The notes: a model not told the origin generated them from the letters alone. 64,000 bases of DNA from Candidatus Porisulfidus sp. TsSOB (GCA_002631715.1 MRSX01000004.1:19864-83863); one strand, 5' to 3'; counted from the stretch's first letter, positions 25,894-29,076 are shown. Made by a program: numbers and translations.

Positions 25894-27048
25894 TCACCCG
25901 GACGTCGAAATCACCTGTTCCGCGCAATCGGCCAGCTGGCGCATGCCGGCAGCCGGCCCTAGCCGCTCCTCGACTTTCTGCAGTCGTACGCGCATCTGAT
26001 CGAGTTGGATCGGGTCGTCCAGCCATGGCGTAAGGGTGGCCGCAACCCGCTGGGGCGTTGCATCGGTCTGAATCAGCTCGGTGACTAGGTCTTCGCCCGC
26101 GACGATGTTCGCGAGACAATATCGCTTGATGCGCACCAGCAGGCGTGCCAGCAGGTAGCTCAGGTTTGCCAAGCGATAGATCATGCAGAACGGGACGCGC
26201 ATCAGGGCCAACTGCAAAGTGACCGTGCCGGAGGCCGCTGCCGCCATGTCGCACACCTGCATGGCGTCGTAGACTGGTTCCTGCAGGCATTTCACTTCGG
26301 GCAGGTCGCCGAGCCACGGGGCGTAGTCGTTCGGGTTCAGCCCGGGCGGCATCACCAGCGCGAACTGCGGCCGGGCGGGATGATTCCTCAGTTCGCGCAC
26401 CGCCCCGGCGCAGACCGGCATCAGGTGGGCGAGTTCGCTGCGTCGGGAGCCGGGGAAGAGACCGATCACAGGGCGTTGCGCGTCCAGTCCCCAGCGCTCG
26501 CGGACGGCATCGGGCGGTCGTGTCGGACTTGTTTGTCCGCGCAGGGGGTGTCCGACGTAGGTGACGGGCACGCGATGTTTCTCGTAGAAATCCCGCTCGA
26601 ACGGAAAGACCACCGCCATGTGGTCGACACGGCGCCGGATGGCGTGCACCCGCCAGGCCCGCCAAGCCCAGATCTGTGGACTGATGTAGAACAGCACCGG
26701 CACGCCGTGCCGATGCGCGAACCGAGCGAGTCGCAAGTTGAATTCCGGATAGTCGATCAATACCAGAAGCTGGGGCTTCCGGGCCAGAACCTGCGCTTTG
26801 AGGGTCTTCAGTGCGCCGCGAATCTCCCGATAATGGCGCAAGACCTCCACCAGCCCGACGACGGCAAGCTCGGTGGAATCGACCACCAGTTCGATGCCGA
26901 CTTCGCGCGAGGCCTCGCCGCCCATGCCGGACCAGGTCCACTCGGGATGCCGGGTACGCAGTTCCTCGACCAGTTCCGCTGCATATCGGTCTCCGGAGGC
27001 TTCCCCGGAGACCAGCATCAGGTGGGGAGCCGTTTCAGGATTCGGCAC
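25894..27048 (-). CDS. lpxB: Lipid A disaccharide synthase (inverted relative to lpxA and rnhB)
   Basis: SGEASGD, LIDYPEFNLRLA, YISPQIWAWR, VGHPL, FPGSRRSE, ASGTVTL; GTG 27048 chosen. Confidence 0.96.
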   Translation of the reverse strand: MPNPETAPHLMLVSGEASGDRYAAELVEELRTRHPEWTWSGMGGEASREVGIELVVDSTELAVVGLVEVLRHYREIRGALKTLKAQVLARKPQLLVLIDYPEFNLRLARFAHRHGVPVLFYISPQIWAWRAWRVHAIRRRVDHMAVVFPFERDFYEKHRVPVTYVGHPLRGQTSPTRPPDAVRERWGLDAQRPVIGLFPGSRRSELAHLMPVCAGAVRELRNHPARPQFALVMPPGLNPNDYAPWLGDLPEVKCLQEPVYDAMQVCDMAAAASGTVTLQLALMRVPFCMIYRLANLSYLLARLLVRIKRYCLANIVAGEDLVTELIQTDATPQRVAATLTPWLDDPIQLDQMRVRLQKVEERLGPAAGMRQLADCAEQVISTSG

Positions 27049-28132
27049 GGGCGAGGCTGGCGCAGATTTGTTCGATCTGGGCGGGCGAAAGCTCCGGGAA
27101 CATCGGCAGCGACAGGCACTGGTCGCAGACCTGTTCGGCTGCCGGCAGCGAAACCCCGTTCGTCCATGGCGCGTAGGCTTCCTGCCGGTGCAGGGGGATC
27201 GGATAGTAGATCCGGCTCTCAATGCCGTCCTTGGCCAGTTGCTCCTGGAGGGCGTCACGTTGCGGGCTCAGCAGGGTGTATTGGTGCCAGACGTGGCCAT
27301 CTGCGTCCGCGGGAGGCTGGATTCCGTCCAGTTTCTGAAGCCTTTCGGTATAGCGGCCTGCGGCCCGCTGGCGTTTCTCGTTCCATTCGGCGACATGGGG
27401 GAGTTTGACGCGCAGAATGGCGGCCTGGAGTTCGTCGAGGCGGCTGTTCAGGCCCAGCGTTTCATGGTGGTAGGGCTGGCTGGAGCCGTGGTTGCGCAAG
27501 GCGCGCAGCCGGGCGGCGAGTTCGGGGTCTCCGGTCGCCACGGCACCGCCGTCGCCGCATCCGCCCAGGTTCTTGCTGGGAAAGAAGCTGAAGGAGGCGA
27601 TCTGCCCGAACGTGCCGGTCGCCTGGCCTGCGGTTCTCGCGCCAAAACTTTGTGCGCAATCCTCGACGATGGCGACATCCGGTCCGATTGCTTCCCGGAC
27701 GGCGGAAACATCGGCGGGTCGGCCGTACAGGTGCACGACCACGGCCGCGCGGGTGCGAGACGTAATCGCGTTTCGGCACGATTCGGGATCGACCAGAAAA
27801 GAGTCGGGGTCGATATCCACGAAAACTGGACGTGCACCGGTCAGGGCGACGGCCTCGGCGGGCGCGGCGAATGTGAAGGCCGGGACCAGGACCTCGTCGC
27901 CGGGCCCGATATCAAGTGCACGAAGAGACAGACACAGTGCGTCCGTGCCGGAAGCGCAACTGACCACGTGGCCGATGCCGAGCATCTCGCCGAGTTCTGT
28001 TTCCAGGGCTTCGACCTCCGGACCCAGCACGTACCGGCCGCTGCGCAGCACGCGCAGGGCAGCGGCCTCGACATCCTCCTGCAAAGCCGTGTATTGCGTG
28101 GTCAGGTCCAGGATGGGGATGGTGGGGCTCAT
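27035..28132 (-). CDS. gnnB: DegT/DnrJ aminotransferase, GnnB-like (UDP-3-keto-GlcNAc transaminase)
   Basis: ASGTDAL, VHLYG, EDCAQSFG, SFFPSKNLG (PLP Lys), NSRLDELQAA; coupled to lpxB and gnnA. Confidence 0.8.
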   Translation of the reverse strand: MSPTIPILDLTTQYTALQEDVEAAALRVLRSGRYVLGPEVEALETELGEMLGIGHVVSCASGTDALCLSLRALDIGPGDEVLVPAFTFAAPAEAVALTGARPVFVDIDPDSFLVDPESCRNAITSRTRAAVVVHLYGRPADVSAVREAIGPDVAIVEDCAQSFGARTAGQATGTFGQIASFSFFPSKNLGGCGDGGAVATGDPELAARLRALRNHGSSQPYHHETLGLNSRLDELQAAILRVKLPHVAEWNEKRQRAAGRYTERLQKLDGIQPPADADGHVWHQYTLLSPQRDALQEQLAKDGIESRIYYPIPLHRQEAYAPWTNGVSLPAAEQVCDQCLSLPMFPELSPAQIEQICASLARAES

Positions 28133-29076
28133 GAGGCGTCCGTCTCCCGCATCCGCTGGGTGACTTCCAGTGCGGTGCGCAAGGCGCGCAGGCCGTCTTC
28201 CCCCCGCACCATGGGTTCGGTGCCCTGCCGGATGCAGTCGATGAAGTGGTGGATCTCCTCGCGCAGCGAATCGGTCTCCTGGAAGGCCTCGGTCGTATGC
28301 TCGATGCGTTCCGAGGGCGGGGCATCGCCTTCGCGCAGGCAATAGCGGTCCAGTTCCCGCTTGTGCAGGTCGAGAGCGTAGCAGGAATGGTGCTGGAAGA
28401 CGCGCATCCGACGCTCGCTGCGGCGGCTCAGGCGGCTGGCGGTGACATTGGCGACGCAGCCGCCGGGGAACTCAAGCCGGGCATTGGCGATGTCCAGGGT
28501 GTCGCCGATTACGGCGGCGCCGCTGGCGCGGATTTCGTGGGGGTCCTCGCCGACCACGGTCAAAGCCAAGTCGATGTCGTGGATCATCAGGTCCAGGGTT
28601 ACGTCGATTTCGGCACCGCGCGGAGTCCAGGGCGCCAAGCGGTGAACTTCGATGAAACGGGGGGTCTCAAGCCCCTGCATCAGGGCGCAGAACGCCGAGT
28701 TGAACCGCTCCAGCAGGCCGACCTGAACGATGCGTTGCTTCTGGCGGGCGAGTTCGATCAGTTCGGTGGCTTCTTCGACCGAGGAGGTGAAAGGCTTCTC
28801 GACCAGCACGTGGCAGCCGGCTTCCAGGCAGGCCCGGGTGATCTCGTAATGTTTCGCGGTCGGTACGACGATGCTGACTGCATCCACCTGGTCGAGGATT
28901 TCGCGGTAATCGGTGAAGCCGGGGACGCCGAGTTCTTCGCAAGCGGCGGTAACGCGTTCGGAATCGGTGTCGACCACGCCGACCAGTTCGGAATCACCTA
29001 AGTCAGCGTATTTCTGCGCGTGAAACCGCCCCAGGTAACCGACCCCGATGACGGCGGTGCGAAGCGGGGAAGTCAC
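28129..29076 (-). CDS. gnnA: Gfo/Idh/MocA oxidoreductase, GnnA-like (UDP-GlcNAc 3-dehydrogenase)
   Basis: IGVGYLGRFHA, VEKP, ERFN, LDLMIHDID; first gene of a block ending in lpxB. Confidence 0.8.
   Translation of the reverse strand: MTSPLRTAVIGVGYLGRFHAQKYADLGDSELVGVVDTDSERVTAACEELGVPGFTDYREILDQVDAVSIVVPTAKHYEITRACLEAGCHVLVEKPFTSSVEEATELIELARQKQRIVQVGLLERFNSAFCALMQGLETPRFIEVHRLAPWTPRGAEIDVTLDLMIHDIDLALTVVGEDPHEIRASGAAVIGDTLDIANARLEFPGGCVANVTASRLSRRSERRMRVFQHHSCYALDLHKRELDRYCLREGDAPPSERIEHTTEAFQETDSLREEIHHFIDCIRQGTEPMVRGEDGLRALRTALEVTQRMRETDAS

Follow-up and report, generated by a model that had tools for sequence, protein, structure and literature searches.

A gnnA-gnnB-lpxB operon predicted to direct 2,3-diamino-glucose-containing lipid A in a sponge-associated gammaproteobacterium

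Does the lipid A of Candidatus Porisulfidus sp. TsSOB contain 2,3-diamino-2,3-dideoxyglucose (GlcN3N)? The question is raised by three genes, gnnA, gnnB and lpxB, on the minus strand at positions 25894-29076 of the 64,000-nucleotide (nt) stretch of this genome analysed here (GCA_002631715.1, MRSX01000004.1:19864-83863; hereafter the window). Judged from sequence and gene order, these genes are predicted, with a probability of about 0.8, to form an operon that is transcribed from the spacer next to rnhB and directs the synthesis of GlcN3N-containing lipid A. Open reading frame (ORF) calls, translations and profile searches reveal three intact, tightly packed genes at exactly the position where the initial annotation had placed a Gfo/Idh/MocA dehydrogenase, a DegT aminotransferase and lpxB. 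The block and its candidate promoter element are as follows.

29076-28129, minus strand: gnnA-like gene, 315 residues, GTG start, predicted UDP-GlcNAc (uridine diphosphate N-acetylglucosamine) 3-dehydrogenase
28132-27035, minus strand: gnnB-like gene, 365 residues, ATG start, predicted pyridoxal phosphate (PLP)-dependent UDP-3-keto-GlcNAc 3-aminotransferase
25894-27048, minus strand: lpxB, lipid-A-disaccharide synthase, 384 residues from GTG 27048 or 374 residues from ATG 27018
29117-29122, minus strand: perfect TATAAT, candidate -10 element, 40 nt upstream of the gnnA GTG in the 137-nt spacer to rnhB

The three-gene block and its order in other genomes

The gnnA stop codon and the gnnB start codon share the tetranucleotide ATGA, in line with the overlapping start and stop codons first noted for the block, while at the gnnB/lpxB junction such an overlap is uncertain. 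An lpxB start at GTG 27048 gives a 14-nt overlap with gnnB, fits the LpxB profile better and restores a normal N-terminus; the ten additional codons are open in a 90% relative (contig L081), where they carry three synonymous and two non-synonymous changes. The public gene calls place the start at ATG 27018, leaving a 16-nt gap after gnnB. Under both starts the three genes are packed as a single operon. The lpxB product itself scores 253 bits against TIGR00215 (cut-off 190) and matches the Pfam LpxB family with an E-value of 1e-80.

The guanine-plus-cytosine (G+C) content of the window is ~60-65%, and because it is high, long ORFs run through all six frames. Plus-strand genes across the block were considered and rejected, the ORFs on that strand being spurious high-GC ORFs. 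The block does not arise by chance, given the tiny E-values of its family matches, the conservation of its synteny in other species, and ratios of non-synonymous to synonymous substitution rates (dN/dS) of 0.11-0.21 without stops against the 90% relative. Specifically, dN/dS against L081 is 0.11 for gnnA, 0.21 for gnnB and 0.15 for lpxB, with neither stops nor frameshifts, similar to the 0.08-0.20 found for lpxA, lpxD, fabZ, rnhB and accA. The block genes are under purifying selection.

Transcription of the block most plausibly begins in the 137-nt spacer that separates gnnA from the divergent rnhB-dnaE-accA-tilS genes. The hexamer TATAAT occurs only six times in the whole window, counting both strands, and the segment CCCGCGGGCTATAATTTC, which comprises the hexamer at 29117-29122 with its flanks, is kept in L081 while the surrounding spacer varies. 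This element is tentatively assigned as the -10 element of the operon promoter; a sigma-70 consensus scan returned no complete -35/-10 pair for the operon, and terminator-like matches occur at the level of shuffled sequence. Contigs from a sponge metatranscriptome run lie over gnnA and gnnB, and one of them (27990-28359) crosses the gnnA/gnnB junction with no differences. Apparent joints in these contigs have short sides of 21-39 letters and were treated as noise. The three genes are probably transcribed.

The locus was compared with that of Acidithiobacillus, for which the sequence of the GnnA structure 7bvj was rebuilt from its alignment, proteins 97-99% identical to it were found, and one contig carrying such a protein was used. 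On this contig the genes rseP-bamA-skp-lpxD-fabZ-lpxA-gnnA-gnnB-lpxB-rnhB-dnaE lie on one strand, confirming that gnnA and gnnB stand between lpxA and lpxB, as the initial annotation had stated for A. ferrooxidans. The same two enzyme families thus occur there in the same order, followed by lpxB, between bamA-skp-lpxD-fabZ-lpxA and rnhB-dnaE, and the window locus is the Acidithiobacillus locus with the gnnA-gnnB-lpxB block inverted. The block does adjoin lpxA, as had been claimed, with 24 nt between the stop codons, but it lies on the minus strand, so that lpxA and lpxB meet tail to tail. Unlike in Acidithiobacillus, where rnhB is co-directional, the block runs towards lpxA and away from rnhB. 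The A. ferrooxidans gnnA-gnnB pair was reportedly described by Sweet, Ribeiro and Raetz in 2004, and the GnnA structures 7BVJ/7BVK are said to come from Manissorn et al. in 2020. A. ferrooxidans is a free-living acidophile, whereas the window organism is an uncultured small-genome sponge associate.

No inverted repeats flank the inverted three-gene block, and hence no trace of the inversion mechanism is left. An identical layout, skp-lpxD-fabZ-lpxA with convergent lpxB-gnnB-gnnA and divergent rnhB, is present in Thioalkalivibrio sp. ALMg11 (L027) and in two uncultured Gammaproteobacteria (L012 and L015), and partly in others. This sharing indicates that the inversion is old; GnnA and GnnB of these three are only 50-53% identical to those of the window, and LpxA 57-64%.

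A scan for GnnA homologues at one genome per species took in at least 599 species, the nearest homologue having 52% identity; the counts that follow come from the best 80. An lpx gene lies in the locus in 42 of the 80 species, with lpxA just upstream of the GnnA homologue in 23. An aminotransferase adjoins the homologue in 26 species and is accompanied by lpxB in 17, and 31 of the 80 loci have neither an lpx gene nor an aminotransferase nearby.

Two further arrangements were observed around GnnA homologues. In 19 of the 80 species lpxB directly follows the homologue with no aminotransferase between them (Legionella santicrucis L018, L005, L019, L023, L036, L037, L044, L051-L054 and others), so in those species the aminotransferase is elsewhere or absent. 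Some Gammaproteobacteria, namely an Ectothiorhodospiraceae metagenome-assembled genome, Methylococcus and relatives, carry directly upstream of gnnA a divergent second lpxA that is 36-46% identical to that of the window (L003 7231-7998, L020, L043, L049, L056). Ectothiorhodospira lipid A reportedly contains GlcN3N, a point on which literature searches gave nothing relevant. The second lpxA beside gnnA recalls the lpxA/lpxA' pair of Capnocytophaga, which has a hybrid backbone (PMC3342949).

Relatives of the dehydrogenase and the aminotransferase

The dehydrogenase matches the Pfam family GFO_IDH_MocA (PF01408, E 2e-35) together with the C-terminal domains PF22725 and PF02894. Among characterised proteins it stands closest, by sequence and by predicted fold, to A. 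ferrooxidans GnnA. A search of all PDB sequences places 7bvj/7bvk first at 218 bits (E 2e-63), with the next match at 94 bits. The AlphaFold model has a predicted local distance difference test score (pLDDT) of 93.4, and Foldseek with this model ranks 7bvj first, with a template modelling (TM) score of 0.93 and an E-value of 9e-36, the next being 8e-26. The 7bvj entry is titled 'UDP-N-acetylglucosamine 3-dehydrogenase GnnA from Acidithiobacillus ferrooxidans', and the window protein is 41% identical to Acidithiobacillus GnnA. Structures of the WlbA/WbpB type are remote: the match to 3q2i (C. violaceum WlbA) is confined to the N-terminal Rossmann part, with a score of 49 bits. The best NCBIfam match is the archaeal UDP-GlcNAc 3-dehydrogenase NF040723, full length at 198 bits and below its 450-bit cut-off. 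Both nearest characterised dehydrogenases oxidise C3 of UDP-GlcNAc, not of UDP-N-acetylglucosaminuronic acid (UDP-GlcNAcA).

The sequence carries a GxGxxG motif (GVGYLG, residues 11-16), EKP at residues 93-95 and DLMIHD at residues 162-167. EKP and DLMIHD align with 7bvj, and the motifs are invariant in 14 homologues. In this superfamily the EKP lysine and the Asp/His of DLMIHD are the catalytic residues.

The aminotransferase belongs to the Pfam family DegT_DnrJ_EryC1 (PF01041, E 6e-114), with its Schiff-base lysine at K187 in the motif SKNLG; alignment with WbpE sets SKNLG against FFPSKPLG and EDCAQS, the motif of the PLP-binding Asp, against EDAAQS. Its nearest solved structures are 7b0d, DesV, WbpE and QdtB at 350-289 bits, the top match 7b0d being an uncharacterised entry. 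Since C3 of a nucleotide sugar is the position aminated by DesV, WbpE and QdtB alike, the regiochemistry is well supported and the substrate is not. The protein is 49% identical (338 bits) to the gene after gnnA on the Acidithiobacillus contig and ~44% identical (300 bits) to P. aeruginosa WbpE.

Neighbour-joining (NJ) trees pair the aminotransferase with Acidithiobacillus GnnB, in a clade whose members are aminotransferases encoded beside GnnA homologues and lpx genes. WbpE, DesV and 7b0d split from this lpx-linked group in 77 of 100 bootstraps, two split variants counted together, and the phylogeny against WbpE that the initial annotation had proposed as a check thus places WbpE outside the lpx-linked clade. 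The gnnA/gnnB assignment of the initial annotation is supported, for the dehydrogenase by its top matches in sequence and fold and, moderately, for the aminotransferase by its identity to Acidithiobacillus GnnB and its grouping with lpx-linked enzymes. Arg229 of WbpE, considered as a candidate discriminator, proved uninformative, since it belongs to the NSRLD motif shared by the whole family.

In the same trees WbpE pairs, in 100 of 100 bootstraps and outside the lpx-linked clade, with an aminotransferase from a groundwater gammaproteobacterium (L021 8951-9988). This enzyme is 58% identical to WbpE and stands beside a GnnA homologue with no lpx gene nearby, so that GnnA-type dehydrogenases can also partner WbpE-type enzymes.

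Predicted pathway and competing readings

In the proposed pathway, GnnA would oxidise the 3-OH of UDP-GlcNAc with nicotinamide adenine dinucleotide (NAD+), yielding UDP-3-keto-GlcNAc. GnnB, translationally coupled through ATGA, would transaminate this intermediate with PLP and an amino donor, yielding UDP-GlcNAc3N, whose new 3-amine the neighbouring LpxA would N-acylate. LpxC, LpxD, an LpxH/I-type enzyme and LpxB would then carry the product to a disaccharide with 2,3-diamino-2,3-dideoxyglucose as one or both of its sugars, giving lipid A with three or four amide-linked primary acyl chains. Three elements of this pathway are inferred: which substrates the two enzymes take, that LpxA uses their product, and how far GlcN3N is incorporated, fully or in a mixed backbone.

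The choice between a fully diamino and a mixed backbone would be set by LpxA selectivity, which is not readable from sequence. According to Sweet et al. in 2004, LpxA selectivity for UDP-GlcNAc3N is reportedly absolute in Leptospira and Mesorhizobium, preferential in A. ferrooxidans and indifferent in E. coli in vitro. The hedge of the initial annotation, a 'diamino or mixed' backbone, is appropriate.

The assignment follows established practice. Homologues of gnnA and gnnB that are 37-44% identical to those of A. ferrooxidans have been accepted as GlcN3N genes where GlcN3N lipid A is chemically proven, as in Granulibacter (PMC8036547), Phyllobacterium and Mesorhizobium (PMC5644692) and Capnocytophaga (PMC3342949). 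As far as sequence comparison goes, the window pair, at 41% and 49%, is on a par with those homologues and has stronger synteny.

Several observations weigh against the prediction. The aminotransferase shares about as much identity with DesV (49%) and 7b0d (46%) as with Acidithiobacillus GnnB (49%), and its assignment as GnnB consequently rests on tree position, with moderate support and a long branch, and on context. LpxA is nearer the E. coli type (282 bits) than Leptospira LpxA (172 bits), which gives no ground for expecting it to use UDP-GlcNAc3N exclusively; this nearness reflects phylogeny only and decides nothing on selectivity. The metatranscriptome contigs are patchy and unstranded, with possible DNA carry-over, and leave lpxB almost uncovered. 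Finally, neither the dehydrogenase nor the aminotransferase reaches any NCBIfam equivalog cut-off.

The archaeal enzyme of NF040723 likewise acts on C3 of UDP-GlcNAc but serves glycan rather than lipid A synthesis. That it is the best NCBIfam match of the dehydrogenase, at 198 bits, lends some weight to the idea that the pair makes UDP-GlcNAc3N mainly for a 2,3-diacetamido sugar of O-antigen, capsule or another glycan, as in the archaeal route, the lipid A being GlcN (glucosamine)-based; the 31 of 80 loci lacking both lpx gene and aminotransferase also indicate that the family is not confined to lpx contexts. Such a role is nevertheless unlikely, because neither the operon nor any other part of the window contains an N-acetyltransferase, a 6-dehydrogenase or a 2-epimerase, and because, as in Acidithiobacillus, the pair is joined with lpxB in an operon that borders lpxA. 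Even E. coli LpxA reportedly acylates UDP-GlcNAc3N in vitro (Sweet et al. 2004), so that the sugar, if formed, would probably find its way into lipid A.

It is more improbable still that the two genes encode a generic sugar dehydrogenase and aminotransferase with another substrate, placed beside lpxB by an accident of genome arrangement. Both superfamilies are large and diverse in substrate, and the shortfall from the curated equivalog cut-offs would fit such a pair; however, Gamma-, Delta- and other proteobacterial lineages show the same linkage to lpxA and lpxB, it is GnnA in particular that gives the best structural match, and the 90% relatives as well as the public gene calls keep both the translational coupling and the shared operon with lpxB.

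The remaining comparison is with P. aeruginosa WbpB/WbpE (WlbA/WlbC in Bordetella) of the UDP-2,3-diacetamido-2,3-dideoxymannuronic acid (UDP-ManNAc3NAcA) pathway, in which a UDP-2-acetamido sugar undergoes the same C3 oxidation followed by transamination. WbpA supplies the substrate of that pair, UDP-GlcNAcA (PMC10622841). The genes of that pathway sit in O-antigen clusters with wbpA, wbpD and wbpI, and its WbpB-type dehydrogenase stands on a superfamily branch distant from that of the window enzyme. That the window enzymes are of this type, taking UDP-GlcNAcA as substrate in the synthesis of mannuronic-acid-type O-antigen sugars, is scarcely credible despite the 300 bits and ~44% identity shared with WbpE, since the dehydrogenase is not WbpB/WlbA-like (49 bits to 3q2i over the Rossmann part, 218 bits to GnnA), WbpE itself falls with L021 outside the lpx-linked group, and the window, the only part of the genome searched, holds no wbpA, wbpD or wbpI neighbours. 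Synthesis of GlcN3N for lipid A is thus the preferred reading of the gnnA-gnnB-lpxB block.

Neighbouring genes and host setting

The block is flanked by the following genes, rnhB marking its far edge.

20696-23035, plus strand: bamA
between bamA and lpxD, plus strand: skp
23598-24617, plus strand: lpxD (NF002060 380 bits, TIGR01853 326 bits, both above cut-off)
24614-25072, plus strand: fabZ (FabA-type dehydratase called at the same position in relatives)
25087-25869, plus strand: lpxA, 260 residues, TTG start (NF003657 363 bits, TIGR01852 331 bits, both above cut-off)
29214-29828, plus strand: rnhB (RNase_HII Pfam family in the called genes)

LpxA, the acyltransferase expected to take UDP-GlcNAc3N, UDP-GlcNAc or both as substrate, contains the HIAHD catalytic motif and is 52% identical to Acidithiobacillus LpxA. 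Elsewhere in the window lie kdsA, kdsD, kdsC, lptC/A and lptB, and the presence of these 3-deoxy-D-manno-octulosonic acid (Kdo) and Lpt genes indicates that lipopolysaccharide synthesis and export are kept in this small genome. Within the kdsD-kdsC-lptC/A-lptB cluster, one gene product of ~346 residues (49692-50756, minus strand) matches both the LptC and the LptD_N (LptA-like) Pfam families and is a possible lptC-lptA fusion.

At the edge of the block, rnhB and dnaE are separate in the window ORFs, with a 4-nt overlap at 29825-29828. In the public calls of the window's contig (L083) they are merged into a 1359-residue product, and on a same-sample contig (L082/L085) they are separate (204 + 1155 residues); the merger is probably a gene-calling or single-base difference.

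Other parts of the window hold features unrelated to the block. A 930-residue ORF at 35862-38654 (minus strand) has no Pfam match; its N-terminus resembles a signal peptide, its middle is repetitive and rich in Thr and Gly, and its C-terminus ends in FSLDLQF, all of which makes it look like an autotransporter. It lies within a ~2.9-kb stretch between a ygaP-like gene and pyrG that is absent from the same-sample contig L085 and from L081 and thus appears to be a strain-variable insertion. Between lptB and hpf-ptsN-rapZ, the plus strand carries genes for two eukaryote-like proteins, an ankyrin-repeat protein (46842-47723) and an EF-hand/dockerin-like protein (47854-48894). No rpoN was seen between lptB and hpf-ptsN-rapZ in the window; in E. 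coli, rpoN presumably occupies the position between lptB and hpf. A Fic/DUF4172 protein is encoded beside a RelB-like gene (55928-57043, plus strand, and neighbours), and a VapB/PIN pair lies upstream of rpsB at ~12.7-13.3 kb; the small genome thus carries genes of the toxin-antitoxin type.

The source organism, an uncultured gammaproteobacterium, has a genome of ~1.58 Mb, and its sequence occurs mostly in runs labelled sponge metagenome. An ENA assembly encodes an identical GnnA protein on a contig of 1.58 Mb, the 90% relative L081 is a 1.59-Mb contig with the hifiasm circular-contig code in its name, and related GnnA proteins 63-98% identical occur on contigs of 1-2.6 Mb. It is a rather doubtful suggestion that gnnA-gnnB may be kept by purifying selection across a clade of genome-reduced, sponge-associated Gammaproteobacteria as an adaptation to host life, the amide-linked lipid A either blunting recognition or resisting host deacylases and antimicrobial peptides and thereby aiding tolerance by the sponge. 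The resistance to ester deacylation and the weak signalling to host sensors that the initial annotation had envisaged would have their sole precedent in C. jejuni gnnA/gnnB mutants, in which TLR4 activation and antimicrobial peptide sensitivity are both raised, as summarised in PMC8036547 and PMC8805021. C. jejuni has the same enzyme pair and is the one case with a tested phenotype; the backbone of this animal pathogen is mixed (GlcN3N-GlcN), and the host sensors of a sponge differ from those that it meets. In the literature searched, no paper was found linking GlcN3N lipid A with sponge symbionts.

In genomic terms the locus is routine, the enzyme pair, its linkage to lpxA and lpxB and its wide distribution having been known since 2004. 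The analysis adds a sponge symbiont lineage to the known carriers of GlcN3N genes, which is of some ecological interest without mechanistic novelty. If the prediction is true, an abundant uncultured lineage of sponge symbionts would show its host a lipid A with three or four amide-linked acyl chains. How sponges and microbes recognise each other is poorly understood, and the predicted GlcN3N backbone offers work on symbiont tolerance a definite chemical trait that can be tested.

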